Positions 6,666-63,994 are shown, numbered from the stretch's first letter. The stretch is 64,000 bases of DNA from a virus (IMGVR_UViG_3300045988_098456); one strand, 5' to 3'. The notes: generated by a model not told the origin, from the letters alone. Program-made: numbers and translations.

Positions 6666-6803
6666 ATGATATTATATGATAATCAATGTTTTGAGCTTTT
6701 AAAAGCTCTGTGTTATAGTGTTCCACAGAATCCAAATGTCGGTAGGTTTGAGATTGCAAACGTTATACTTGACACATTACAAAAAATAAAAGATGCGGAT
6801 TAA
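6666..6803 (+). CDS. hypothetical protein (45 aa)
   Basis: Hand-translated; TAAGCGTATG junction at the start, stop inside cassette g. Confidence 0.4.
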   Translation: MILYDNQCFELLKALCYSVPQNPNVGRFEIANVILDTLQKIKDAD

Positions 6804-6833
6804 CAGCTTTCGGGCACAAATTTAAAGATAATG
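6800..6833 (+). repeat. start-associated cassette, copy g
   Basis: TTAACaGCTTTCGGGCAcAAAtttAAAGATAATG. Confidence 0.55.
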
Positions 6834-7007
6834 ACAAAGGAAGAAATATTGGAAAAGGCATCTGATTTTGAGGATGAAGATGAGTTTGTGAAGTGTGATA
6901 GATTGCCGTTCACTGAAGAATTGTGGCTTTTACATCAGCTAGTGTATATCGGCTTGTCTTGCACCTATACAGGTCGTGGCTATATAATTGAAAAACTTAA
7001 AGATTAG
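6831..7007 (+). CDS. hypothetical protein (58 aa)
   Basis: Hand-translated; ATG from cassette g. Confidence 0.45.
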   Translation: MTKEEILEKASDFEDEDEFVKCDRLPFTEELWLLHQLVYIGLSCTYTGRGYIIEKLKD

Positions 7008-7796: not shown

Positions 7797-7824
7797 AAGG
7801 AGAGGAATATCATTTCCCCTCCTT
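7797..7824. terminator. bidirectional hairpin between convergent genes
   Basis: AAGGAGAGG-N10-CCCCTCCTT, 8 of 9 bp, overlaps the stop of the leftward gene. Confidence 0.5.
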
Positions 7825-8151
7825 TGCCTTAATCTCCAGCTCGATAGGCTTGCCGCAATGAGGGCAGATGATAGCCGGAGATTGCGGAATGGATGGCTGC
7901 TCTGGTTGAACCTTTTGCAATGGCTCATCTGTAAGAAGTTGCCAATCCTCTACATTTAATGCAATAGCAATTTGATGCAAAGAATCTATGCTAGGAGTTG
8001 TTTTTCCATTTACTATAAGTGAAATAGCATTAGCGGTTACTCCTATTGCATCTGCTAATGATTTAGCCTTCATTTGTCGTAAATCTAGATAATACTTAAT
8101 GCGTTTACTTATATTAATAAGGTATTCGCTTTTAATGTTGCTTTTTATCAT
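7810..8151 (-). CDS. XRE-family HTH regulator with C-terminal zinc ribbon
   Basis: LRQMKAKSLADAIGVTANAISLIVNGKTTPSIDSLHQIA (HTH_3-like) and CPHCGKP; only leftward gene in the first 51 kb. Confidence 0.8.
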   Translation of the reverse strand: MIKSNIKSEYLINISKRIKYYLDLRQMKAKSLADAIGVTANAISLIVNGKTTPSIDSLHQIAIALNVEDWQLLTDEPLQKVQPEQPSIPQSPAIICPHCGKPIELEIKAKEGK

Positions 8152-12463: not shown

Positions 12464-15400
12464 ATGGCACAGTTAGAATTTAATATCAAAGCGAATTTCG
12501 AGGAGGTTACGAAACTTCGTTCCGAGTGTGAAAAGTTGAGGGCTGAGTTGTTGAAGACCAACAAGTCAACCGACCCAGCTATTGTTGCGGATTTGACGGA
12601 AAAATATGCAGATGCAAGCAATCGCTTAAAGGATTTAACGCAAGCAGCTTCAAGAGCCGCTTACGTGATGTCTTCTGAGTTTAATAAGAAGATGCAAGCA
12701 GCCGCAAGGGAAGTTTATAGCTATGAACTTCAAATGCAAGCTACCAAAGACCGAATAGAGAAAATCCAACAGCAAATCACGAACAAGAGATTAACTCTTG
12801 GAATTACAACGGATAAGTCATCCATAGATTCTTTGCAGAAGAATATTGACTATTTAAAAGGCTCTTTGGCAGGTCAAACAGCTCAGTTGAAGAACTTAGA
12901 AGGAGGTGCTGTCGGTGCTCGTCAGACCTTGGAGAATATGCGGAATGAGTATGTTTTGTATGCAGGTTCAGCAAATCCGGCAAAAGAGGCAACAAATATG
13001 TTGACCGATAGCATGAGCCAAATGATAGAACGTATGAAGTCAGCTCCGACTGCTGGAGAAGGAATGACTAGTTTGTTCCAAAGAGTTACTGGCGATGCTC
13101 ACATGCTTTCGGCAACATTACTTGGTGGCTTAGGATTTGAACAATTAACACGTAGCGTTTTTAATACTCGTTCCCAATTCCAGCAACTTGAAATATCTTT
13201 CAATACCATGCTTGGTAGTGCTGATAAGTCTAAGCAATTGATGGACGAACTTATCCAAACGGCAGCTCATACACCTTTCGATATGTCCAGCATTACGGGT
13301 GGCGCAAAACAACTTTTGGCATACGGAACGGAAGCGAAAGATGTTAACAAAACCCTTGTACAGCTTGGTGACATTGCTTCGGGCTTGAACATTCCGCTTG
13401 GAGACCTTGTTTATCTTTATGGAACGACCGTTTCGCAAGGAAGAATGTTCACAATGGATTTGCGTCAGTTCATGGGTAGAGGTGTCCCATTAGCAGAAGA
13501 ATTGGGTAAAATCTTACACCAAAACACAACTGAGGTTCAAGAGTCTGTTTCTAAGGGAAAAGTCACATCAGACATCTTCAAGGAGGCTATCGCTAATATG
13601 ACGCAAGCTGGCGGTCGTTTCGGAGGCTTGATGGAGCAACAATCAAAGACATTGGAGGGTCAGTGGAGTAACATTGGCGATTCCATCCAGCAAGCGTTCA
13701 ACGAAATCGGCAAAAAATCCGATGGCGTGTTCTCTAGTGGATTGTCAATTATTTCAGCTATGGTAGAGAATTGGCAAGAGGTAATAAAAGTTATTGGTGT
13801 AGCTACAATAGCTGTTGGTTCTTATCGTGCATCGTTAATGGCGGCTGCTTCTATTCGCAAAGCTGAGGAAGCGCAACAAGCCGATGATATGATGAAGGGA
13901 ATTGATGCAGAAATCAAGCGTTTGCAAGACCTAGAGAACTCAAACTACAAGTCGCTGGGTAAGGACAAAAAGCAAGAGCGAGTAAGCAAACAACAAGACT
14001 TGGCAAGTATTGTTGGAGATACTGCTGTGTCCGATGATTTTGTAAAGGCAAGGTTAGATGCAGCCGAGCAAGAGGGCGTTATTTCGGCACAAATGCGTTC
14101 ACAACTAGAGACGAAACGTGAACTTTTACAGACTCAGCAACAAGCAACTGCACAAAGCCAGATTGAGCTTGATGAAGAAAAAAGAAAGACAGAGGAACTT
14201 CGTCAACAAAAGATAGAATCTCTTAAAGATGATTTGAAGACTACCACGGAGAAAATATCAAATCTTGATGATAGGGATGTAGAGTTGGCTAGACAATATA
14301 CAGCAGCTTTGAATGATTTGCAAGATGCCCAAGATGCCTTTGCTGAGGCTCAAAAATTGGTTGAAGAAACCGCTGATGGTGCAAACTTGGCTTTTGACTC
14401 CGAGGGTAATGCCGTGAATGCACTAGAAGCAAAGGAACGTTTGGCAACCGCTGCGAAGAAAGTGAATATTGCGCAAACAAATGTTTCGACAATTGCAAGT
14501 CAGCAAAGAGGAGCTGCGCTTATTCGTGAGCAATTACAAGAGAGACAAGCGACACTACAAACGCAGTTGAATTCGGTTAGTCAAGCTACCAATACGACTA
14601 CGAAAAAGGCTAGTACTTTAGCTACGGTTGCTTCAACGGTAAAAAATGCCATCCATACAGCAAGTGTTAAAATAATGACAACTGCTGAATTAATGCTTAG
14701 TAATGCGGTAAAATCCACAACTATGGCTTTAAAGGGAATGTGGGCTGCTATGCTTGCAAATCCGATTACTGGTATTATAACATTGGTAACAACGCTTGCT
14801 AGTGCCGTTGCAATGTTCGGAGGTGAAGAGGAAGATATTTCTGTTGACACAAAGCATTTTGGAGATTCTGCTGAAAACACAAGGGCGAAAGTTGATGGCT
14901 TGCTTAACGTAATGAGGTCTTCTAAGGAAGGAACTGATGCTTACAACAAAGCTAAAGAAGAACTTATCCAAACATACGAGCAGTTCGGGATTAAGTGTGA
15001 TGCCGAAAAGGATAATTTAACAACACTTAAAGGGAAGCATGATGAATTTGTTGCAACTTTACAATTGGAGAATGCTGAAAGAGAAAAGGCTAATGCTTTA
15101 ATGTCTGCCACTTCCCAATACACAGAAGCAAGAAACAAAGAAGATGACAATTTTAGCAAAGACTTATCCGGTCATTGGTATCAAGGTGGGCAACATGTAG
15201 ATAAGGAAGATATAACATCAATACAAATGATGTATAATTCCATAGCAACAGATGAGGTTTTAGATAGGCTGGCTAAGTTGAAGCAAAGAGTAGATGATAG
15301 CACATTGTCTTACAAGGAGCATATAGATGCTTTTAATATTTACACAAATGCAGTTAAAAAGACATTTGCGCCTATTGATTCGTTCTTAGAAAAACAACAT

Positions 15401-18400
15401 TACAATATAGCGACTATAGAGAATACTGACCATTCGATATTGGAGCATACGAGTAATCTTGCAAAATTAAAGACAAGTTATAAAAACGCAGAGGATGCGA
15501 TAATGAAGGCGGCTGCTGAAAATGTAGATTGGAATAATACACAGGCTAGGTCACAATGGGTAGCTCAGCAAAATAAACAAAGCATAGATGCCTTAACTTC
15601 CTCAACAGACCAGCTTATTTCTATATGGAATCAGGAATATGGATTAAATTTAAAAATCCATTATGATGATACAGAAATACCAAGTTGGATGAAATCTTTA
15701 ACGGATAAGCAGTTGCAATCTTTGATTAATAGACGTAAGGCGGATTTAAATAGGCAAGAGCAATACCGAACTAATCATAAAGGAAGTAAATTGCTGACAA
15801 AACAAGGAAATCAGCTAAGAGACGAAAATGCCAATAGGCTTGATGTAGCTATGGCTGGTTCTATTCTGAAAGATAGAGAGGCGAAAAGAAAAGCCGACGC
15901 AAATAAGCCGAAGGAAACGACAAAGAAAACTACACCTAAGAAAACAGGTGCAACGGATGACCCACAAGCAAGAGCGTATGAACGCAAGAAGGCTGAGGAG
16001 GACTATTCCAAGTCTATTTCATCCTATTCGGAGAAAGCTATCCAAGACATGACCAAGAACCGCATCAATGCGATGAATGAGGGTTATAGCAAGGAATTGG
16101 CTAAGATTACCGAGAATGCCGACAAGGAGAGAAAGGCGGTAGAAGAAGGTATAGACAAATTGGTTGAGGCTAGGAAAAAGCGTGACCAAGCTGTTTGGGT
16201 TAATTCCGGCAAGGGTCGTAAGGCTAATATGTGGAAACAGAGCAAAACCGATGAAGAGTATAAGAATGAGGTTTTGAATGAAACCATGAAGGATAGCAAT
16301 GGTAATCCGGTTAAGGTAAATGGAATGGAGATGACCATAGGCATGAGTGTTGCTAATCAGATGAATGCAATTCGGGATAAGGCGGTAAAGCAGAATGAGG
16401 ATGTGCTTGCTAAAGAAGCGCAAAGCATGTACGATTATCTGAAGACTTATGGCACATTCCAGGAGCAGAAGTTAGCTATTGCTGCCGATTATGCTAAGAG
16501 GATTAGCGAGGTTGAAAACTCTACGGATTCGGACTCAAACAAGCAATGGAAGATAAAGTCTTTGAAAGAAGAGCAGAAGAAAGAGACGGATTCGGTTGAG
16601 ACTAATGCTATTATGCAGAAGATAGACTGGTATCAAGTCTTCGGAAATGTTGGTGGCATTATGAAAGATGCGCTTGTTCCTTTATTGGCTGATCTGGATA
16701 AGTTCGTAGGTACGGATAAGTTTCAAAATTTGGGAGCAGACCAGCAGAAGAGTATCGTTGATGCTATGCAGAATATCCGTAATTCGATTGGCAATACAAG
16801 TGATTTGGGTTGGAAAGACCTTGCAAGGGACGTTGTAGCTTATCAGGAGGCTCTGAAGAATGCGAAAATTGCACAAGAGGAATATACGGAAACGGAAACC
16901 GAGCTTATACCTCGAATTAAGGATTTGCAAAATCAGATAGCGAATGCGAAAAAATCGGGCAATGTCGCAGAGCAAGCTAGATTGCAAAATGATTTGAATA
17001 AAGTTCAAGGTCAGTTAGCGGAGTCCGGCAAGAAGATAGTTACGGCTAACACAAAGGTTCGTTCAAGTGGTCAGAAGTTGGCACAAACCACACAGAATGT
17101 AACGCAACCGATTTCCGCTATCCATGAGTTCCTTTCAACTTCCGGACTATCCGATTTGGCATCTCTTTGGGATAGTTTCGACCAACTTAAAGGTGGAATT
17201 GACGGATTGAAAGCTTTGGATGAGGCTAAGAAAGCGGCTGATGGTCTGAAGGATATGGGCAAGGAAGCCGCAGACGCAGCCGCAGACGCTGGCAAGAAAG
17301 CTGGTGATGCGCTAAGTGAAGGATTGTCAAAAGCTGGACTAATAGGTCAAATCGTATCTGCCATCTTGACGATACTTGATGTTTTGAAGGATGGTATCGG
17401 AACATTGATTAGCAGCTTGATTGATACAGTTCTGAATGCGGTCAATGGTATATTGAAGAACATTCTAAGTGGTGAGTTTATCACACAGATAGGAGGGTCT
17501 TTGGTAAGCGGTATCGGTAATATTCTCAATACAATCTCGTTTGGTGGCTTCAATAGTTTGTTTGGAGTAGGTGGAAACGCAAAAGAAGTAAACCGGACTA
17601 TAGACAAATTGACGGCTAGGAACGAAATCTTGACGGATGCAATAGACAGATTACGTGACTCTATAGACAAGACTAGTGGTATCAAAGCCGTAGAAGACTC
17701 AGAAAAAGCTGAAAAACTTCAAAAGGAAAAAGAGCAAAACCTAAAGGACATCATGGTGGCGCAAATGGGTTATCATGGCTCTCATAAAAGTTTTAACCAT
17801 TATTTCCGAGGATTTTCGCAAGAGCAAATCAATAAGGTGTCTGAAGCGATAGGTAGACAATGGAATGGAAACCTAAGCGACATACGGTCTGCTGATGAAG
17901 CTAATGCGTTGTTGCAAAATCCTGATATTGTTAACAAGATTCAGAACACTGGTAAGGGAAATTATGGAGGAAGAGTCCTCGAAAAGTTGAAAGATTATGC
18001 GGCTGAGGCAGGAACATTAGAGGATATTGCTGATGACCTAGCAGAAAGCTTGACGCAAATATCTTTTGATAGTTTAAAGAGCGAGTTCATAGATACTTTG
18101 ATGGATATGAATTCCTCTGCTCAGGACTTCTCTGATAATTTCTCCAAGATGCTTATGCAAGCCGTTCTGAAAGCTAAGGTAGATGATTTGTTGGGTAATG
18201 ATATGCAAGCATTCTATGATGAGTGGACGGAGCGAGCTAAGGCAAATGGTGGCAAATTGTCTCAGACGGATATTAATGAATTGAAGGGAAGGTACGATGA
18301 AATGGTTCAAGAAGGACTGAAGATTAGAGATGAAGTAGCCGAAATAACTGGTTACAAGCAATCTTACGAGCAGTCAGCTTCTTCCGGTTCTTTCGAATCA

Positions 18401-18739
18401 ATGAGTCAAGATACAGGAGAAGAGTTGAATGGTCGTTTCACTGCGGTACAAATTGCCACAGAGGGAACGTATGAGGAAACAAAGCTCATAAATACCAAGT
18501 TGGATGCTATTGCGGCTCGTGATGGTGGTACAGAGGGCAGCTTATTGACGGCTAGCGTGAATACCATTATGGGAAATGTAGGAAATATTTGGTTAGCTGT
18601 TGATGAGGGTAGAACTATCCTTGCACAAAGCTTAATGTACTTGCAGTCGATTGATGAGCGACAAGAGCGATGGCATAAGCCTATGTTGCAAGCATTCAAT
18701 GATATACACGAATTGAAAGATAAGATGAGTAGATTGTAA
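12464..18739 (+). CDS. tail tape measure protein (2091 aa)
   Basis: TP901-type core (FNTMLGSADKSKQLMDELIQTAAHTPFDMSSITGGAKQLLAYG...LGDIASGL), long coiled coils, three hydrophobic/Gly-rich segments. Confidence 0.9.
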   Translation: MAQLEFNIKANFEEVTKLRSECEKLRAELLKTNKSTDPAIVADLTEKYADASNRLKDLTQAASRAAYVMSSEFNKKMQAAAREVYSYELQMQATKDRIEKIQQQITNKRLTLGITTDKSSIDSLQKNIDYLKGSLAGQTAQLKNLEGGAVGARQTLENMRNEYVLYAGSANPAKEATNMLTDSMSQMIERMKSAPTAGEGMTSLFQRVTGDAHMLSATLLGGLGFEQLTRSVFNTRSQFQQLEISFNTMLGSADKSKQLMDELIQTAAHTPFDMSSITGGAKQLLAYGTEAKDVNKTLVQLGDIASGLNIPLGDLVYLYGTTVSQGRMFTMDLRQFMGRGVPLAEELGKILHQNTTEVQESVSKGKVTSDIFKEAIANMTQAGGRFGGLMEQQSKTLEGQWSNIGDSIQQAFNEIGKKSDGVFSSGLSIISAMVENWQEVIKVIGVATIAVGSYRASLMAAASIRKAEEAQQADDMMKGIDAEIKRLQDLENSNYKSLGKDKKQERVSKQQDLASIVGDTAVSDDFVKARLDAAEQEGVISAQMRSQLETKRELLQTQQQATAQSQIELDEEKRKTEELRQQKIESLKDDLKTTTEKISNLDDRDVELARQYTAALNDLQDAQDAFAEAQKLVEETADGANLAFDSEGNAVNALEAKERLATAAKKVNIAQTNVSTIASQQRGAALIREQLQERQATLQTQLNSVSQATNTTTKKASTLATVASTVKNAIHTASVKIMTTAELMLSNAVKSTTMALKGMWAAMLANPITGIITLVTTLASAVAMFGGEEEDISVDTKHFGDSAENTRAKVDGLLNVMRSSKEGTDAYNKAKEELIQTYEQFGIKCDAEKDNLTTLKGKHDEFVATLQLENAEREKANALMSATSQYTEARNKEDDNFSKDLSGHWYQGGQHVDKEDITSIQMMYNSIATDEVLDRLAKLKQRVDDSTLSYKEHIDAFNIYTNAVKKTFAPIDSFLEKQHYNIATIENTDHSILEHTSNLAKLKTSYKNAEDAIMKAAAENVDWNNTQARSQWVAQQNKQSIDALTSSTDQLISIWNQEYGLNLKIHYDDTEIPSWMKSLTDKQLQSLINRRKADLNRQEQYRTNHKGSKLLTKQGNQLRDENANRLDVAMAGSILKDREAKRKADANKPKETTKKTTPKKTGATDDPQARAYERKKAEEDYSKSISSYSEKAIQDMTKNRINAMNEGYSKELAKITENADKERKAVEEGIDKLVEARKKRDQAVWVNSGKGRKANMWKQSKTDEEYKNEVLNETMKDSNGNPVKVNGMEMTIGMSVANQMNAIRDKAVKQNEDVLAKEAQSMYDYLKTYGTFQEQKLAIAADYAKRISEVENSTDSDSNKQWKIKSLKEEQKKETDSVETNAIMQKIDWYQVFGNVGGIMKDALVPLLADLDKFVGTDKFQNLGADQQKSIVDAMQNIRNSIGNTSDLGWKDLARDVVAYQEALKNAKIAQEEYTETETELIPRIKDLQNQIANAKKSGNVAEQARLQNDLNKVQGQLAESGKKIVTANTKVRSSGQKLAQTTQNVTQPISAIHEFLSTSGLSDLASLWDSFDQLKGGIDGLKALDEAKKAADGLKDMGKEAADAAADAGKKAGDALSEGLSKAGLIGQIVSAILTILDVLKDGIGTLISSLIDTVLNAVNGILKNILSGEFITQIGGSLVSGIGNILNTISFGGFNSLFGVGGNAKEVNRTIDKLTARNEILTDAIDRLRDSIDKTSGIKAVEDSEKAEKLQKEKEQNLKDIMVAQMGYHGSHKSFNHYFRGFSQEQINKVSEAIGRQWNGNLSDIRSADEANALLQNPDIVNKIQNTGKGNYGGRVLEKLKDYAAEAGTLEDIADDLAESLTQISFDSLKSEFIDTLMDMNSSAQDFSDNFSKMLMQAVLKAKVDDLLGNDMQAFYDEWTERAKANGGKLSQTDINELKGRYDEMVQEGLKIRDEVAEITGYKQSYEQSASSGSFESMSQDTGEELNGRFTAVQIATEGTYEETKLINTKLDAIAARDGGTEGSLLTASVNTIMGNVGNIWLAVDEGRTILAQSLMYLQSIDERQERWHKPMLQAFNDIHELKDKMSRL

Positions 18740-20290: not shown

Positions 20291-20345
20291 TTTTGTGTCT
20301 AAGTGTATAATATGAGTTAAAAGACAAAAGAAATACATTAAAAAG

Positions 20346-20377
20346 TTTGCATATTTCAGATATTCTTTGTATCTTTG
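20346..20377 (+). promoter_or_regulatory. promoter TTTG-N20-TATCTTTG
   Basis: Exact consensus. Confidence 0.75.
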
Positions 20378-20413
20378 CAATGTAATTAAGAAACAAGGTT
20401 ATTAATTTGAAAA

Positions 20414-20437
20414 GGTGAGACACACCGTAAAAACTGT
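20414..20437 (+). promoter_or_regulatory. leader hairpin box, copy 1 (GGTGAGACACACCGTAAAAACTGT)
   Basis: 4-bp stem, 5-nt loop; ends 8 nt before the ATG. Confidence 0.75.
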
Positions 20438-20445
20438 GATTCGTT

Positions 20446-20667
20446 ATGAATACTAGATTGAGTAAGAAAGAGACAATGGTTTATGGCAACATCGGAGTGA
20501 TGGCAGACGTAATCGGAGGTAATAAGTACTTCACTTTTGCAGATTTGTATGATTTCGATTTGGATAATACCAAGGATGAGTTGAAAGAAATATTAAACTC
20601 TTTGACCGAGAAAGGTTATTTAAAGAGTTTTAATGATTTCGATAAAACTTATCGAGTTTTAAAGTAA
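20446..20667 (+). CDS. hypothetical protein (73 aa)
   Basis: Track ORF. Confidence 0.6.
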   Translation: MNTRLSKKETMVYGNIGVMADVIGGNKYFTFADLYDFDLDNTKDELKEILNSLTEKGYLKSFNDFDKTYRVLK

Positions 20668-20713
20668 GAATAACAAAGGAGATATAAAATCCAATTACAA
20701 TATAAATTTAGAG

Positions 20714-20735
20714 CGTGAGACACACGTAAAACTGT
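20714..20735 (+). promoter_or_regulatory. leader hairpin box, copy 2 (CGTGAGACACACGTAAAACTGT)
   Basis: Compensatory C-G closing pair; ends 9 nt before the ATG at 20745. Confidence 0.7.
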
Positions 20736-20744
20736 ATTGAAACA

Positions 20745-20828
20745 ATGAAAAAGGTATTTACAATTGAGAATGCATTAGCATTTTTGTTTGCTCTTGAAAT
20801 AGTATCATTAATATTTTTTCTAGGATAG
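20745..20828 (+). CDS. possible 27-aa hydrophobic peptide
   Basis: MKKVFTIENALAFLFALEIVSLIFFLG; same box-to-ATG spacing as longer genes. Confidence 0.3.
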   Translation: MKKVFTIENALAFLFALEIVSLIFFLG

Positions 20829-33557: not shown

Positions 33558-33589
33558 TTTGCAAGTTAGCGAGATATTTTTTATCTTTG
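33558..33589 (+). promoter_or_regulatory. promoter TTTG-N20-TATCTTTG
   Basis: Exact consensus. Confidence 0.75.
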
Positions 33590-33643
33590 CAAGCGCAGAA
33601 CAAAAAAGGATAAAATGGCGATTTAAGAAATTGATAAGATATT

Positions 33644-33730
33644 AGAGACACGAAACCCGATGGACTATACCGAAAGGCAGTCCGAGTCACTATTCCTTTG
33701 ACTTTGCAATCGGTAGTTTCGTGTTTTTGT
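33644..33730 (+). ncRNA. three-way-junction leader RNA ending in a U-run (attenuator or riboswitch-like)
   Basis: P1 33648-33661/33709-33724 (14 bp, 2-nt bulge), P2 33662-33683 with GAAA tetraloop, P3 33685-33703, then TTTTTGTGTTT. Confidence 0.55.
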
Positions 33731-33742
33731 GTTTAAAATAAG

Positions 33743-34045
33743 ATGCAAGACGTAAGGTTGATATTTGAGATACTGGTTTCTATGTTGCTTTGCGTTTGTC
33801 TCATATTGCTTGCTGTAAGTAGATATAGGCAAAAGAAAAAGCGTGAAGAACCGGAGCGAAAGGAAATGGACTTGATAGACTTCTTTTCTTTGGGAGGAGT
33901 TGCCTATTATTGGAACAAAGGTGGTAAGCAGCAGAAATGCTACACATACGAAGAATTTCTGAAAATCAAGGCTGACTACGTGGAGCTTTGGTTGAATCAG
34001 AACAGATATATTTTTAACTCTCAATTAGATTGCGATGATATATAG
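33743..34045 (+). CDS. small membrane protein (100 aa)
   Basis: LIFEILVSMLLCVCLILLAVS TM segment followed by a basic stretch. Confidence 0.55.
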   Translation: MQDVRLIFEILVSMLLCVCLILLAVSRYRQKKKREEPERKEMDLIDFFSLGGVAYYWNKGGKQQKCYTYEEFLKIKADYVELWLNQNRYIFNSQLDCDDI

Positions 34046-41552: not shown

Positions 41553-41576
41553 GGTGAGACACACCACAAAAACTGT
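41553..41576 (+). promoter_or_regulatory. leader hairpin box, copy 3 (GGTGAGACACACCACAAAAACTGT)
   Basis: Ends 9 nt before the ATG at 41586. Confidence 0.75.
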
Positions 41577-44085: not shown

Positions 44086-44474
44086 TAGACGATAAGAAAA
44101 TAGAATCTGCAAAGGAAGAAATCTATGAAGATAGATTCTTGCTTAATGGTGAAGAGATAGTCTTCAACAATGATGAAAAGGAAGAAATGTTCTACAAAGA
44201 GGACATCAAAGAAGCCATTGGACTAGGTGCTAAGTGGGCTATCAATGAGCTATTGAAGGACTTGTGGCATCCTGTTAGCGAAGAGCCGAGAAAAGATGTT
44301 TCCATTATAGTAGAAACACATAATGACAAGAATATGTTTTACTATGCTTGGAACAGATGGCAAGATAACTTTTATCCATCGTGGACTGACGCAGTTCTTT
44401 GTAGTAGGGTTTCTCGTTGGCTTTATATTGATGATTTACTGCCAAAAAAGGAGGTGAGCAATGAAAGAGCTTAA
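44082..44474 (+). CDS. hypothetical protein, MIDDKKIE family
   Basis: Paralog of 6159..6476. Confidence 0.6.
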   Translation: MIDDKKIESAKEEIYEDRFLLNGEEIVFNNDEKEEMFYKEDIKEAIGLGAKWAINELLKDLWHPVSEEPRKDVSIIVETHNDKNMFYYAWNRWQDNFYPSWTDAVLCSRVSRWLYIDDLLPKKEVSNERA

Positions 44475-44784
44475 AGATTTGGTTGTTGGTGATGATGTAC
44501 TAGTTACAGGTATGTATTACAGACGTATCGCCAAGGTTGATAAAGTGACAAAGACTCAAATTATTGCTAATAACGCTAGATTTAGAAAAGATTCGGGCTG
44601 GCAATGTGGTAGCGATAGCTGGGATAGGAAAAGTATATCTGTTCCTACAGAAAAGGAAATATTAGATATAAAAGAAGAGAATCTTCGCAAGATTCTCATC
44701 CACACTATCAGTTCTTTTGATTTTGAACGTTTATCAACAAATGATTTAAAACAAGTGTACAATATTGTAAAAGGCAAAGAATGA
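44461..44784 (+). CDS. hypothetical protein (107 aa)
   Basis: Track ORF. Confidence 0.55.
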   Translation: MKELKDLVVGDDVLVTGMYYRRIAKVDKVTKTQIIANNARFRKDSGWQCGSDSWDRKSISVPTEKEILDIKEENLRKILIHTISSFDFERLSTNDLKQVYNIVKGKE

Positions 44785-56299: not shown

Positions 56300-57472
56300 T
56301 TAAAAGAATGCATTTGTTAATTGTTTATTTCCACTCATTATTACCCACTTTCCTTTGCCGTTTTGGTCTAGCAATTTCAAGTCTTCAACTTTTCCGAACC
56401 TCTCATAAGTACCACAGAGGTCAACAAACCAAGGTTGTTTCCCTTTTGATAGTCTAAGAAGTCTTCCTACGACTTGATAGTATTGCGCTAATGAACGTGT
56501 TGGCTTTGCATACACGACCGTATCTAACTCCGGATAGTCAAAACCTACGACCAATATTTGACTATTTACCAGTACCTTAGTCTGCCCATTGCGGAAACGC
56601 TCGATGATAGCCTCACGCTCTTTAGGTGGTGTCTCTCCGCAGACCATTTCGCAGTTGGGTATTGAATAGGTCAGCATCTGAGCTTCTTTAACGAACTTAG
56701 TAAAAACCAAGATACCTTTACGTTGTCCACCTCGCTTCGGATTAAGCAATCTTTTGACAACATTAACTAGCCATCCGTACAAATCTACACGTTCATATTC
56801 TTGTTTGACACTTTGGTCAGTGTAATCACGGCAAGTTGAATTGAGCTGCAAGTTTCCTTCGTTCCATTGTGGTGGTGGGCATGTGTAATAGTTCGGAAGA
56901 CAGATATATCCGTTCTTTGCCATATCCTCAACTTGAACATAATAAATAAGCTCCTTGAAAATCTTGTCTCGACTTCTTGTCAGAAACTTCAGTATGCTAC
57001 CATAGTTCTGATAGGAATACAAGCGGAAAGGTGTTGCGGTTAAGCCTATGACCTTACTCTTTAATTTATCAAGAAACTCCTTATACATACCGGATTCAGG
57101 TTTCACTAAATGAACCTCATCAATCAATATGTACTTAAAGTCAGTAAACAATTCGGGATGTCCTTTCACGCTACCAATTGTAGCAAAAGTAACATCGCTG
57201 ATTTCTTTTGATTTAAAGCTAGCGGAATAGATGCTGGCATTATCAAATCCATAAGAACAATACTTCTTGTAGTTTTGTTCCAAAATTTCCTTAGTAGGAG
57301 AGAACACAAGCACTTTATCCTTGAGCCTAGCAGCTATATCTGCCAAAATCAATGATTTGCCCGATGCGGTAGGGAGCACTTCCAGAGCGTTCCAATTTTT
57401 CTTTTCATCCAAGAAAAACTCAACTGCCTTCTTGCTTGCTTCTTCTTGATATGGTCTTAATTTAAACTTCAT
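56300..57472 (-). CDS. SF2 DEAD/DEAH-box DNA helicase
   Basis: RPYQ, PTASGKS (I), DEVH (II), TATP (III), QVVGRLLR (VI). Confidence 0.85.
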   Translation of the reverse strand: MKFKLRPYQEEASKKAVEFFLDEKKNWNALEVLPTASGKSLILADIAARLKDKVLVFSPTKEILEQNYKKYCSYGFDNASIYSASFKSKEISDVTFATIGSVKGHPELFTDFKYILIDEVHLVKPESGMYKEFLDKLKSKVIGLTATPFRLYSYQNYGSILKFLTRSRDKIFKELIYYVQVEDMAKNGYICLPNYYTCPPPQWNEGNLQLNSTCRDYTDQSVKQEYERVDLYGWLVNVVKRLLNPKRGGQRKGILVFTKFVKEAQMLTYSIPNCEMVCGETPPKEREAIIERFRNGQTKVLVNSQILVVGFDYPELDTVVYAKPTRSLAQYYQVVGRLLRLSKGKQPWFVDLCGTYERFGKVEDLKLLDQNGKGKWVIMSGNKQLTNAFF

Positions 57473-57559
57473 TTCACAAATAATATGAAATCACTTTTGT
57501 TACTATATAGGAATGCACAAGTCTTATGCATAACAAAAGCCAATAGAAAAAATGACCTT

Positions 57560-57583
57560 ACAGTTTTTATGGTGTGTCTCACC
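57560..57583 (-). promoter_or_regulatory. leader hairpin box, copy 4
   Basis: Reverse complement reads GGTGAGACACACCATAAAAACTGT; starts about 10 nt after the promoter -7. Confidence 0.75.
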
Positions 57584-58601: not shown

Positions 58602-58603
58602 AG

Positions 58604-58676
58604 TTGCTGCTGTGGGGGTCGAACCCACAACCTTTTTCCGTGATAGGAAAACATTCATCCATTGAACTAAGCAGCA
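58604..58676 (-). tRNA. tRNA-Asp-like with anticodon ATC (A34)
   Basis: Acceptor TGCTGCT/AGCAGCA, Asp-like D arm TAGTTCAATGGATGAAT, loop CTATCAC (canonical Asp is CTGTCAC), T arm GTGGG-TTCGACC-CCCAC; one extra nt (6-nt variable or 8-nt loop). Confidence 0.6.
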
Positions 58677-59188: not shown

Positions 59189-59214
59189 ATTCTTTATTTT
59201 TATGTTAGAGAATG

Positions 59215-59288
59215 TGGTATCGGTTAGGCTTGAACTCACGACCTAATGTTTAGGGAACATTTGCTCTATCCAACTGAGCTACGACACC
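59215..59288 (-). tRNA. tRNA-Arg(CCT)-like with T32-C33 loop
   Basis: Acceptor GGTGTCG/CGATACC, D arm GCTC-AGTTGGAT-AGAGC, anticodon arm AATGT-TCCCTAA-ACATT, T arm GTGAG-TTCAAGC-CTAAC (one G-A mismatch). Confidence 0.55.
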
Positions 59289-62435: not shown

Positions 62436-62459
62436 ACAGTTTTTATGGTGTGTCTCACC
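62436..62459 (-). promoter_or_regulatory. leader hairpin box, copy 5
   Basis: Reverse complement reads GGTGAGACACACCATAAAAACTGT; ends 9 nt before the ATG at 62426. Confidence 0.75.
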
Positions 62460-62494: not shown

Positions 62495-62526
62495 CTTGCA
62501 AGTTACGATATTTTTATGTATATTTG
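62495..62526 (+). promoter_or_regulatory. rightward promoter CTTG-N20-TATATTTG (repressor gene)
   Basis: 20-nt spacer. Confidence 0.65.
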
Positions 62527-62550: not shown

Positions 62551-62582
62551 CAAAGATAAGAAAAGTATCGCAAATATGCAAA
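62551..62582 (-). promoter_or_regulatory. leftward promoter TTTG-N20-TATCTTTG
   Basis: Plus-strand CAAAGATA-N20-CAAA; predicted start lies to the right of the rightward start. Confidence 0.7.
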
Positions 62583-62688: not shown

Positions 62689-63819
62689 ATGAATAGTGCA
62701 TACGAAAGACTGAAGGCTGTAATCACTGCTTTGGGTTACACTTCAAATGAAAAATTCGAGGATACCGTAGGCTTAGGACATGGATTCGTCAGCCGTATAA
62801 CTAATCGTGTGTCTTCCAAAAGCTTGCAAGCTATAACGAAAAAATTTCCGCAGGTAAATCCAAGTTATATTAGGACGGGAATGGGAGAAATGTTCATCTC
62901 TTCACCTATAAAGGTAAGCGAAAACGAAAACGCAAAGACTAGACTGCGTAAGTATCTTGAATATAAAGGAATTACCAAACGTGAATTTTGCGACAAAGCT
63001 GACGTGGCCTCTAACTTTCCAATCATAGGGAAGAATGGTGTATTCACGGCAAGGGTATCTTATAGAGTAAATTCTAAATTCCCAGATCTTAATATGGATT
63101 GGCTAGCTAATGGAGCTGGTGAAATGTTGCAGCCGGAGGCTAATATTGAGAAATTCAACAACTACAAAAGCAGAATTGCGCCATTCTGTACAGAGATGGG
63201 AATTAGTACTACATTCTTCTTGCGGAAGTGCAAGAGCTATACCAGTGCAATTAGCAGATTGCCGGATATGCCTAGCGAGACTTTCTTGAAGAATATCTCT
63301 TTGGCTTACCCTCAGCTAAATCTGAATTGGCTTAAGACCGGAGAAGGAAAGATGTTTAACGATGACATCAAATCGAATATCAATTCAAGCGTCAGCTTTG
63401 TTCCTCTTGTTCCACAGATGGCTTATGCTGGTTATCTCAGCGGATATGCAGATGATGTATATATATCATCGCTCCCAACAATCCCTATTGTAAAGGAAGA
63501 TAAAGAAAAGTACGTAGCATTCGAGGTAAGCGGTGATTCTATGGATGATGGCTCGTCTAGAGCTTATCAGAATGGAGACATCGTTATATGTAAAGTCTGC
63601 CCTGACTACATTGTAAAGAGCAATGGACTTCATATAGACGGAAAGGAATATATCATAGTTCATAAAGAAGGTATTCTGTTGAAGCGTATCATTGACTTGG
63701 ATATGAATAATGGAAAGCTTATATTGCGTTCCTTTAATCCTACCTATCGTGATTTAGAGTTGGATTTAGCAGATGTGAAGCAGCTCTTAGTTGTGGAATA
63801 TCAGCAGAAAAGGAAATGA
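62689..63819 (+). CDS. CI/LexA-like repressor: three N-terminal HTH repeats + S24 peptidase
   Basis: Repeats end NPSYIRTGMGEMF, NMDWLANGAGEML and NLNWLKTGEGKMF; C-terminal FEVSGDSMDD...ILLKRI (Ser/Lys dyad). Confidence 0.8.
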   Translation: MNSAYERLKAVITALGYTSNEKFEDTVGLGHGFVSRITNRVSSKSLQAITKKFPQVNPSYIRTGMGEMFISSPIKVSENENAKTRLRKYLEYKGITKREFCDKADVASNFPIIGKNGVFTARVSYRVNSKFPDLNMDWLANGAGEMLQPEANIEKFNNYKSRIAPFCTEMGISTTFFLRKCKSYTSAISRLPDMPSETFLKNISLAYPQLNLNWLKTGEGKMFNDDIKSNINSSVSFVPLVPQMAYAGYLSGYADDVYISSLPTIPIVKEDKEKYVAFEVSGDSMDDGSSRAYQNGDIVICKVCPDYIVKSNGLHIDGKEYIIVHKEGILLKRIIDLDMNNGKLILRSFNPTYRDLELDLADVKQLLVVEYQQKRK

Positions 63820-63936: not shown

Positions 63937-63994
63937 TGTTCCGTATAACAGCCTTCTAAGCTGTGGGTCTTGGGTTCGAACCCCAACGGAATCA
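63937..63994 (+). other. tRNA-Arg(TCT)-like element lacking the D arm (pseudo-tRNA or att core)
   Basis: Anticodon arm ACAGC-CTTCTAA-GCTGT, T arm TTGGG-TTCGAAC-CCCAA and acceptor 3' strand CGGAATC are intact; only TATA lies where the D arm should be. Confidence 0.55.

Follow-up and report, generated by a model that had tools for sequence, protein, structure and literature searches.

The question raised by positions 20414-20437 of the virus IMGVR_UViG_3300045988_098456, of which a stretch of 64,000 nucleotides (the window) was analysed, is what a short box recurring in front of several operons does there, and whether it does so as DNA or as RNA. The virus is an uncultured siphovirus of the Bacteroidota type from the human gut, and in the databases it comes closest to a faecal phage fragment without annotation, at 94% identity. 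A reading made by a model from the sequence alone (the sequence-only reading) had described near-identical boxes in five leaders of the window, had proposed that the pairing of a small hairpin in them is selected, and had listed as possible roles a translational operator, an RNA-processing or antitermination site, and an operator for the phage repressor. Comparisons of sequence and genomic context show the box to be the DNA image of a sense-strand RNA module, a hairpin plus a tail, in the 5' untranslated region (5' UTR). They also show this module to be portable across unrelated phages, elements resembling integrative and conjugative elements (ICEs), toxin-antitoxin loci and host genes of two phyla, and its position to be tied to the start codon whatever the distance to the promoter.

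The presence of the five boxes was confirmed by several counts. The window contains five instances of the exact core GTGAGACACAC (20415, 20715 and 41554 on the plus strand, 57582 and 62458 on the minus strand) against 0.48 expected, and none of 100 shuffles reached five. The 24-nucleotide box with up to three mismatches gave four matches where none was expected, and the tail AAAACTGT was found five times in the 64 kb, each time within a box. A covariance model of 26 positions (R1), the kind of model that the sequence-only reading had proposed to build, was made from 123 distinct units and run on the window with filters off. It recovered exactly the five boxes with 33-40 bits (E <= 8e-6), the next match having 12 bits and an E value of 0.9. 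The boxes, their promoters and the transcription units which they mark are as follows.

20346-20377, plus strand: promoter of the box-1 cassette, Bacteroidota type (TTTG-N20-TATCTTTG)
20414-20437, plus strand: box 1, hairpin GGTG-AGACA-CACC (20414-20426), linker GT, tail AAAAACTGT; 40 bits
20714-20735, plus strand: box 2, CGTG-AGACA-CACG, linker T, tail AAAACTGT; 33.3 bits
41484-41515, plus strand: promoter of the box-3 cassette, Bacteroidota type
41553-41576, plus strand: box 3, (T)GGTG-AGACA-CACC(A), linker, tail AAAAACTGT; 36.8 bits
57560-57583, minus strand: box 4, in the leader of the helicase operon; 37 bits
57594-57601, minus strand: -7 element TACCTTTG of the helicase-operon promoter
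62436-62459, minus strand: box 5, in the leftward leader diverging from the repressor gene; 39.7 bits
62551-62558, minus strand: -7 element TATCTTTG of the leftward early promoter
20.4 kb and 41.5 kb, rightward; 57.6 kb and 62.4 kb, leftward: box-marked transcription units

Four of the five copies end 8-9 nucleotides before an ATG, as had been read from the sequence. The tail of box 1 is followed after 8 nucleotides by the ATG (20446) of a gene for 73 amino acids, and a distance of 9 nucleotides separates box 2 from the ATG at 20745, box 3 from the ATG (41586) of a gene for 124 amino acids, and box 5 from the ATG (62426) of the first gene of the Erf/exonuclease operon, which encodes 93 amino acids. 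At box 4 the helicase ATG (57472) lies 87 nucleotides downstream. Box 2, which is 2 nucleotides shorter than the others, is indeed intercistronic and without a promoter of its own. The open reading frame behind it (20745-20828, plus strand; 27 codons) encodes a hydrophobic peptide, MKKVFTIENALAFLFALEIVSLIFFLG, which is conserved in 25 related loci. The promoters of the window are of the TTTG / TAnnTTTG kind, and the distance from the end of the -7 box TAnnTTTG to the box is 36 nucleotides for box 1, 37 for box 3, 10 for box 4 and 91 for box 5; the distance of 10-40 nucleotides that had been given for four copies therefore holds for boxes 1, 3 and 4 and fails for box 5. As box 4 follows its -7 element by only about 10 nucleotides, it should lie near the 5' end of the helicase-operon transcript. 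All copies were correctly placed within transcribed leaders, on the sense strand. They stand on all four non-structural (early) transcription units of the phage and on one internal cistron, and in this limited sense the proposed regulon stands; a regulon specific to the phage does not, as the box is also present in unrelated elements.

The helicase leader 3' of box 4 (57472-57583, minus strand) is strongly structured, with a minimum free energy of -30.7 kcal/mol and a z score of -3.1. It carries an upstream open reading frame of 20 codons (MHKTCAFLYSNKSDFILFVK), the TGA of which overlaps the helicase ATG (ATGA), and the helicase start codon is located inside a predicted hairpin; the arrangement of the two in this predicted fold suggests translational coupling. 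The promoter of the 20.35-kb and 41.49-kb cassettes is also found at 26.1 kb (26100-26250, plus strand), where it precedes a block of structural genes and where the leader is different, with a hairpin GGTG-AGAGCGA-CACC and without the ACTGT tail. Early and late units may share a promoter type and differ in the leader. Two sites, 26196-26210 and 33645-33651, had been regarded as degenerate relatives of the box; since they have neither the ACTGT tail nor a score with R1, they are no relatives of it. A structured leader at 33582-33745 (plus strand), 3' of a TATCTTTG promoter and with its ATG at 33743, is likewise unrelated to the box and contains a long-range helix in which ACACGAAAC (33650-33658) pairs with GTTTCGTGT (33718-33726).

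Across all carriers the motif consists of a stem of 3-5 base pairs of free sequence, an invariant AGACA pentaloop, a linker of 3-10 nucleotides, usually A-rich, and an invariant AACUGU. This yields a module of 22-27 nucleotides, made up of a hairpin of 13-15 and a tail of 9-13 nucleotides, in which the loop is closed by a G-C or, rarely, a C-G pair. The definition follows from tandem arrays, where neighbouring units differ in their stems (CGG/CCG, TGTG/CACG, GTGC/GCAC, GCGC/GCGC, GAG/CTC and GGG/CCC) around one and the same loop and tail. The AGACA loop was found in 123 of 123 distinct units of the alignment (A1), and a tail variant, AACTGA (ACUGA in the RNA), occurs in some units with the loop unchanged. 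An explanation of the tail by an upstream open reading frame or its stop codon was tried and rejected, because the bases following ACTGT vary.

As the scans had fixed a GTG/CAC core, the stem was tested on occurrences outside the search pattern. A flanking stem of at least 3 base pairs was present at 60 of 80 distinct sites of the form AGACA..AACTG followed by T or A that the pattern had not fixed, against 4 of 99 chance matches from a relaxed scan. The pattern of the latter, AGACA-N5-9-AAAAACTGT, returns mostly chance matches and was used as the null; it also gave one new stem variant, GTGG/CCAC. In the alignment A1 the inner three stem pairs are paired by construction, yet their composition varies, with three, three and two types of pair respectively. 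The fourth pair, which the selection did not require, is paired in 96 of the 123 units as GC, CG, AU, UG or GU, with a covariation score of 0.65 compared to 0.16 for shuffles and at most 0.19 for slid partners. The leaders of yicC in five species have the stems GGGTG/CACCT, AGGTG/CACCT, GGGG/CCCC and TGGTG/CACCA. G.U pairs such as those in TGTG..CACG and CGGTG..CACTG are valid on the sense strand only and become A.C on the other strand, and the five window copies as well as almost all others lie on the coding strand of the downstream gene. The covariation of the stem together with the sense-only G.U pairs argues that the motif acts as RNA, and the selected pairing that had been proposed from the CGTG..CACG stem of box 2 is borne out across the family. 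ViennaRNA centroids retain the small hairpin, and no larger fold recurring among the window copies was obtained with this program, the enclosing helices differing from copy to copy.

The constancy of loop and tail invites the idea of a ligand sensor or a self-contained pseudoknot, in which ACA of the loop would pair with UGU of the tail, with the A-rich linker placed, as in preQ1-I, in the groove of the stem and the tandem hairpins resembling guanidine-II. The order of hairpin, A-rich linker and 3' segment directly 5' of the ribosome-binding site would suit such a device, as would a tandem arrangement in which the loop is conserved and the stems are free to vary; the guanidine-II and preQ1-I elements are small hairpins of just this construction, sometimes in tandem, and are structural analogues of the box. 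The ACUGA tail, however, is not compensated in the loop, so that loop and tail do not covary, the loop of 5 nucleotides is too small for a binding pocket, no Rfam riboswitch model matches, and there is no metabolic theme among the downstream genes. Such a device is considered highly improbable.

The evidence for RNA also bears on the proposed operator of the phage repressor or of a second DNA-binding protein. The genes concerned, and those of the leftward operons, are listed here.

7810-8151: helix-turn-helix (HTH) protein
56300-57472, leftward: helicase gene
leftward: Erf/Rad52 and exonuclease genes
62689-63819, plus strand: CI-like repressor with S24 peptidase domain

A double-stranded DNA operator of the stoperator kind for either the S24 repressor or the 7810-8151 HTH protein would agree with the asymmetric sites aligned with transcription 3' of early promoters, one of them in the region diverging from the repressor gene. 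The stoperators of the mycobacteriophages L5 and Bxb1 are, like the box, asymmetric (13-bp) sites present in many copies in short intergenic regions and oriented with transcription. They are, however, double-stranded DNA sites of an immunity repressor and specific for an immunity group, whereas the box has covarying stems with sense-only G.U pairs, and the identical site stands in elements without the repressor (Alistipes, Prevotella, Parabacteroides, Ignavibacteria and Blautia loci). The distance of box 5 from its promoter and the lack of a promoter at box 2 also speak against a DNA operator, which has become extremely improbable. As the same box is found in unrelated phages, ICE-like elements, toxin-antitoxin loci and host genes, the assignment to one of these two proteins was abandoned; to judge from this distribution the box is a general post-transcriptional leader signal and not an operator of the repressor of the window phage. 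The repressor itself has three N-terminal repeats (..YIRTGMGEMF, DWLANGAGEML and NWLKTGEGKMF) ahead of the S24 peptidase domain, and the -7 element of its promoter (62519-62526) faces that of the leftward early promoter (62551-62558) within about 40 bp. Antisense control of box 5 from the repressor promoter was rejected, because this rightward -7 element lies downstream of box 5 and the transcript therefore does not cover it.

A further feature of the module is its register with the start codon, which in Bacteroidota usually comes 5-10 nucleotides after the tail. Among the matches listed, about 70 of the 94 distinct viral instances have a start codon (ATG or GTG) 5-10 nucleotides after the tail, comprising 47 ATG codons of longer open reading frames, 10 GTG codons and 13 ATG codons of open reading frames of 27 codons; most of the remaining instances are upstream units of arrays or belong to the helicase leader, and the distance to the promoter in the 94 instances ranges from 10 to about 100 nucleotides. 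In the yicC leaders the promoter is about 10, 28 or 45 nucleotides away while the tail-to-ATG distance stays at 7-11 nucleotides, and in the cysS leaders of five species the box alone is conserved. A promoter of its own is lacking not only at box 2 but also in the higB-higA spacer and in the arrays of Clostridia. In the prophages of the latter a terminator-like hairpin and a conserved CCCGAAGGC..AAACTAC are followed by 2-4 tandem units, the last tail of which abuts the Shine-Dalgarno sequence of the scaffold-protein gene. Given the fixed spacing between tail and start, the element ends where the ribosome footprint begins.

This register is difficult to reconcile with an element acting at the level of transcription, be it a terminator-resistance site like nut or put or a pause stabilised by the hairpin, which stands 9-13 nucleotides before ..CU|G. 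The location in leaders heading four operons and a distance between hairpin and tail compatible with class-I pauses are in its favour, and a hairpin with a conserved pentaloop next to a conserved single-stranded box recalls boxB and boxA. Indeed the nut sites of lambda and P22 share with the box a hairpin with a 5-nucleotide loop, a conserved single-stranded box, and a place in early-operon leaders and once between cistrons. In the box, however, the order is reversed (hairpin, then single-stranded segment), AGACA is not a GNRA-like loop such as GAAAA, GAAGA or GACAA, and no boxA for NusB/NusE (such as CGCUCUUA) is present 5' of the hairpin, where the flank is variable and A-rich, the sole conserved single-stranded segment being 3' of it. 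Further, the distance is fixed to the start codon or the Shine-Dalgarno sequence and not to promoters or terminators, the units lie after and not before a terminator-like hairpin in Clostridia prophages and in the relatives of box 2, single genes such as cysS, yicC and higA, host genes among them, are preceded by a box, and no shared small basic protein resembling N was found among the open reading frames of the box loci. A function of this kind is judged very unlikely. Of the RNA-level roles that had been put forward at the outset, the antitermination site finds no support, for want of a boxA and because the spacing is fixed to the start codon, whereas a translational operator and an RNA-processing site survive.

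The likeness of the leaders at 20.4 kb and 41.5 kb, noticed already in the sequence-only reading, is explained by their being one promoter-leader cassette. In 53 distinct relatives this cassette is at least 90% conserved through ACTGT and diverges directly after it, ahead of different genes. Such a border is what would be expected if the box were only a boundary homology patch for the exchange of modules, for example by the Erf/exonuclease system of the phage. This is hardly credible as the sole function, because it leaves the covarying stems, the fixed spacing to the start codon and the conservation of nothing but the box in cysS and yicC leaders unexplained.

How far the module has spread was seen from scans with the exact pattern, which gave at least 120 loci in viral contigs and 116 loci in one genome per species (about 185,000 genomes). 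The latter loci are mostly from Bacteroidota (Alistipes, Bacteroides, Parabacteroides, Prevotella/Segatella, Rikenellaceae, Chitinophagales and Ignavibacteria), some are from Clostridia (Blautia and other Lachnospiraceae), isolate genomes included, and a handful in other phyla are evident chance matches. Five contigs binned as Lachnospiraceae (L131, L145, L220, L223 and L235; bins of Waltera intestinalis and others) have promoters of the Bacteroidota type and the single-unit cassette. They are probably phage contigs in bins of the wrong host, which calls for caution with the host labels of metagenome-assembled genomes when phyla are counted. The genes following the box are diverse. They encode a ParB-like protein of 718 amino acids (beside an ArdC gene), SSB, DUF6876, a HigA-like antitoxin and TnpB; of these the ParB-like, SSB and DUF6876 genes count as ICE genes, the last two as typical ones. 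In phages many unrelated small genes are found and, in Clostridia prophages, the scaffold protein, and in hosts the genes for CysRS (cysS), YicC, a MurQ-like protein and a FAD-dependent protein. Other hydrophobic peptides of 27-30 amino acids stand immediately behind a box in unrelated elements (L135 and L223 among the loci), and small membrane-peptide genes behind boxes are probably missed by standard gene callers.

Among cultured, annotated phages none with the box was found, the phage carriers being unannotated faecal phage fragments only. That the element is undescribed, as the sequence-only reading had supposed, agrees with the outcome of the searches. With Rfam 15 the window gave only tRNAs at the gathering threshold, and only noise with E values up to 10 for positions 20330-20770 of the window and positions 6760-6960 of a second locus (L004); nothing relevant on the box sequence or on AGACA/ACUGU was found in the searched literature. 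Leader hairpins acting in cis are a known kind of element; new are the bipartite invariant signature, the start-codon register in a phylum that dispenses with Shine-Dalgarno pairing, the tandem form in a second phylum, and the range of carriers, from phages and ICEs to toxin-antitoxin loci and host genes.

With the module defined, the question is what recognises it. One possibility is an RNA operator whose protein comes from the mobile element itself, a small regulator of the Aca2/Aca1 or T4 RegA kind which would bind hairpin and tail beside the ribosome-binding site and shut off translation of early or anti-defence operons. The acr-aca leaders, too, have their hairpin 3' of the transcription start and 5' of the start codon in early operons of mobile elements (PMC13551039), and the Aca2/Aca1 operators consist of one or two small hairpins in the 5' UTR, before the ribosome-binding site, of operons with early or anti-defence functions (Birkholz et al. 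2024; PMC13551039). Binding of the protein blocks the access of ribosomes, and one motif can serve several operons of an element (PMC13551039). A similar layout was met in one set of Bacteroidota elements, where in 18 of 22 loci the box heads a unit of two genes on the same strand, a variable one followed by a conserved small protein of about 115-135 amino acids. Moreover, XRE-type HTH genes are common nearby, the HigA-like HTH gene is itself led by a box, and the box-3 operon of the window contains a protein of 107 amino acids (44461-44784, plus strand) with a full-length borderline match to the Pfam family Phage_ProQ_C_like (26.9 bits, cut-off 27), a possible RNA-binding protein to judge from this match.

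The small proteins of the two-gene units belong to two families, one of about 130 amino acids and the other of about 115 amino acids with a CxxC..CxC zinc ribbon, which have a C-terminal RRNKYPRF..AGEFL motif in common. They are encoded 260-1000 nucleotides downstream of the box (L016, L018, L022, L026, L054, L062, L066, L100, L140, L178, L218, L230 and other loci), have no match in Pfam or PHROG, and are absent from the window. A partner common to all carriers did not emerge. All-against-all clustering of 4,791 open reading frames from box loci gave no universal protein family, and tblastn of the window open reading frames against the Clostridia-type loci gave no shared protein. Homologues of the S24 repressor are restricted to close relatives of the window phage, so that it cannot be the general partner, and the same restriction applies to the homologues of the 44461-44784 protein. 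Also, Aca motifs co-occur and co-vary with their cognate HTH gene in the operon and resemble a DNA repeat of the promoter, whereas loop and tail of the box are invariant across elements and phyla, no regulator is shared, and host genes such as cysS and yicC carry it. The coat-protein hairpins of MS2 and PP7 and the RegA sites of T4 are comparable as short RNA sites at the ribosome-binding region which are defined by loop bases and a free stem, and RegA controls many early genes. These operators overlap the start codon and are specific for the protein of one phage, whereas the box ends 5-10 nucleotides upstream and is common to unrelated elements. On balance, an element-encoded regulator is regarded as unlikely.

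The reading favoured here, with middling confidence, is that the box is a portable leader module which borders the ribosome-binding site on its 5' side, is recognised by a conserved host component and controls translation or mRNA stability, be it as an enhancer or as a repressor site. Since loop and tail are identical in elements of two phyla that have no regulator in common, the partner would most simply be such a component, the ribosome, an RNase or an abundant RNA-binding protein, and not a phage protein. At the 5' edge of the ribosome footprint the module would promote or gate de novo initiation, and it might also shield the 5' end of the mRNA. The outcome would be strong expression, independent of neighbouring genes, for first cistrons and for genes which need to out-produce their upstream neighbour. 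The genes served are first cistrons, the gene of an antitoxin that follows its toxin, that of a scaffold protein behind minor head proteins, and genes for early functions or for establishment; for this reason promotion or gating of de novo initiation, together with protection of the 5' end, is the preferred role. The leaders of ermC and SP82, the STAB-SD of cryIIIA and the epsilon of T7 gene 10 are likewise portable modules by the ribosome-binding site, and these raise expression; neither in these stabilisers and enhancers nor in guanidine-II and preQ1-I, however, is there an AGACA loop or an AACUGU tail.

Several observations weigh against a host-recognised module of this kind. The motif is rare and sporadic, with 116 matches in some 185,000 species genomes, which argues against a general need for it by a host factor. 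A plain stabiliser hairpin gives no account of the specific recognition that the invariant loop and tail require. Box 4 sits 87 nucleotides from its ATG, the window does encode the borderline ProQ-C-like protein (44461-44784), and the two-gene units of 18 of the 22 loci, by their analogy to acr-aca operons, would favour an element-encoded regulator at least in that set.

If the partner is an RNase, the host endoribonuclease YicC/YloC comes to mind, which might cleave the 5' arm and so trim the leader by the ribosome-binding site, the copy in front of yicC being autoregulatory. In vitro YicC prefers RNAs of about 26 nucleotides in which a hairpin of 4 bp is followed by a 3' tail of about 10 nucleotides, one group has reported a preference for GUG/CGUG with cleavage after U, and the enzyme is present in virtually all bacteria with a proposed role in the removal of protective 5' ends (bioRxiv 10.64898/2026.03.25.714237; PMC10793500). 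The box has this size and shape (a small hairpin with a stem of about 4 bp, a 3' single-stranded tail, about 26 nucleotides), most boxes begin with CGUG or GGUG, the enzyme occurs in both phyla, and in five related Bacteroidales genomes the box is located in the 5' UTR of yicC, with compensatory changes in the stem. The association is restricted to this one clade, however: yicC loci at 64-66% identity lack the box, as do 80 metagenomic ones (48-63% identity), so that it reflects a single acquisition, and a general autoregulation of yicC was rejected on these grounds. The known specificity includes no sequence requirement for loop or tail and leaves the invariant AGACA and AACUGU unexplained; the stems of the arrays lack GUG, the enzyme is inhibited in vitro by 5' extensions, and a conserved site destroying phage mRNA would be disfavoured by selection unless cleavage activates the message. 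A YicC site is accordingly thought quite improbable.

A direct contact with ribosomal RNA was considered through complementarity and through mimicry. Complementarity of loop and tail to 16S rRNA of E. coli, which was compared here in place of that of Bacteroidota, is limited to matches of 5-7 nucleotides including G.U pairs, none of them at the 3' end, and the motif of Clostridia has an ordinary Shine-Dalgarno sequence behind it. With the loop of 16S helix 13 (CUGAGACACGG, nucleotides 322-332 in E. coli; L336, L337), which is universally conserved and which Rfam draws as a loop of 10 nucleotides, the box has UGAGACAC in common, and protein S20 (bS20) touches U323/G324 of this helix (PMC2847233). 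Similar strings are present in 23S rRNA of E. coli near nucleotides 941 (GGGAGACACACGG) and 2598 (CGUGAGACAGUU). As GAGACA occurs four times in E. coli rRNA, mimicry is only a weak lead, and the likeness may be a coincidence or a shared loop fold.

A bolder extension of the host-component reading would make the box the natural target site of a host factor that is universally conserved and for which no consensus target is known; mobile elements of two phyla would have copied this site in order to control translation of the genes expressed first or needed most. The leading candidate would be the 'clamshell' RNase YicC/YloC, with autoregulation of yicC, and the alternative a mimic of an rRNA loop that binds a ribosomal protein. 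This proposal is speculative and rather unlikely to be correct as a whole.

The remaining features of the window are a long tape-measure gene and a number of tRNA calls.

12464-18739: tape-measure protein, 2,091 amino acids
25061-25496, plus strand: tRNA calls
58603-58676, minus strand: tRNA call
59214-59288, minus strand: tRNA call
63937-63994, plus strand: tRNA call

The tRNAs include a cluster of Glu, Gln, Tyr and Lys, one of which was called with a 4-base anticodon; the others are a tRNA-Asp, for which an unusual anticodon, ATC, was called, a tRNA-Arg(CCT), and one that is truncated by the end of the window.

Bacteroidota ignore Shine-Dalgarno pairing, and how start sites are selected without it in these bacteria and their phages is largely open. 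If the bolder extension of the host-component reading is true, the box would be the first defined cis element in Bacteroidota that sets where and how strongly ribosomes start. With its 24 nucleotides it offers a testable handle on this problem as well as a ready-made part for the design of expression in Bacteroides. In uncultured gut phages the motif marks true start codons, including those of peptide genes of 27-30 codons, and the beginnings of transcription units. One invariant RNA signal stands on early operons of phages, on ICE genes, in toxin-antitoxin loci, before a few host genes and on the capsid operons of Clostridia prophages. This points to a shared host factor which the mobile elements exploit, and the identification of this factor could give the YicC family of RNases, or another orphan RNA-binding factor, its first natural target.

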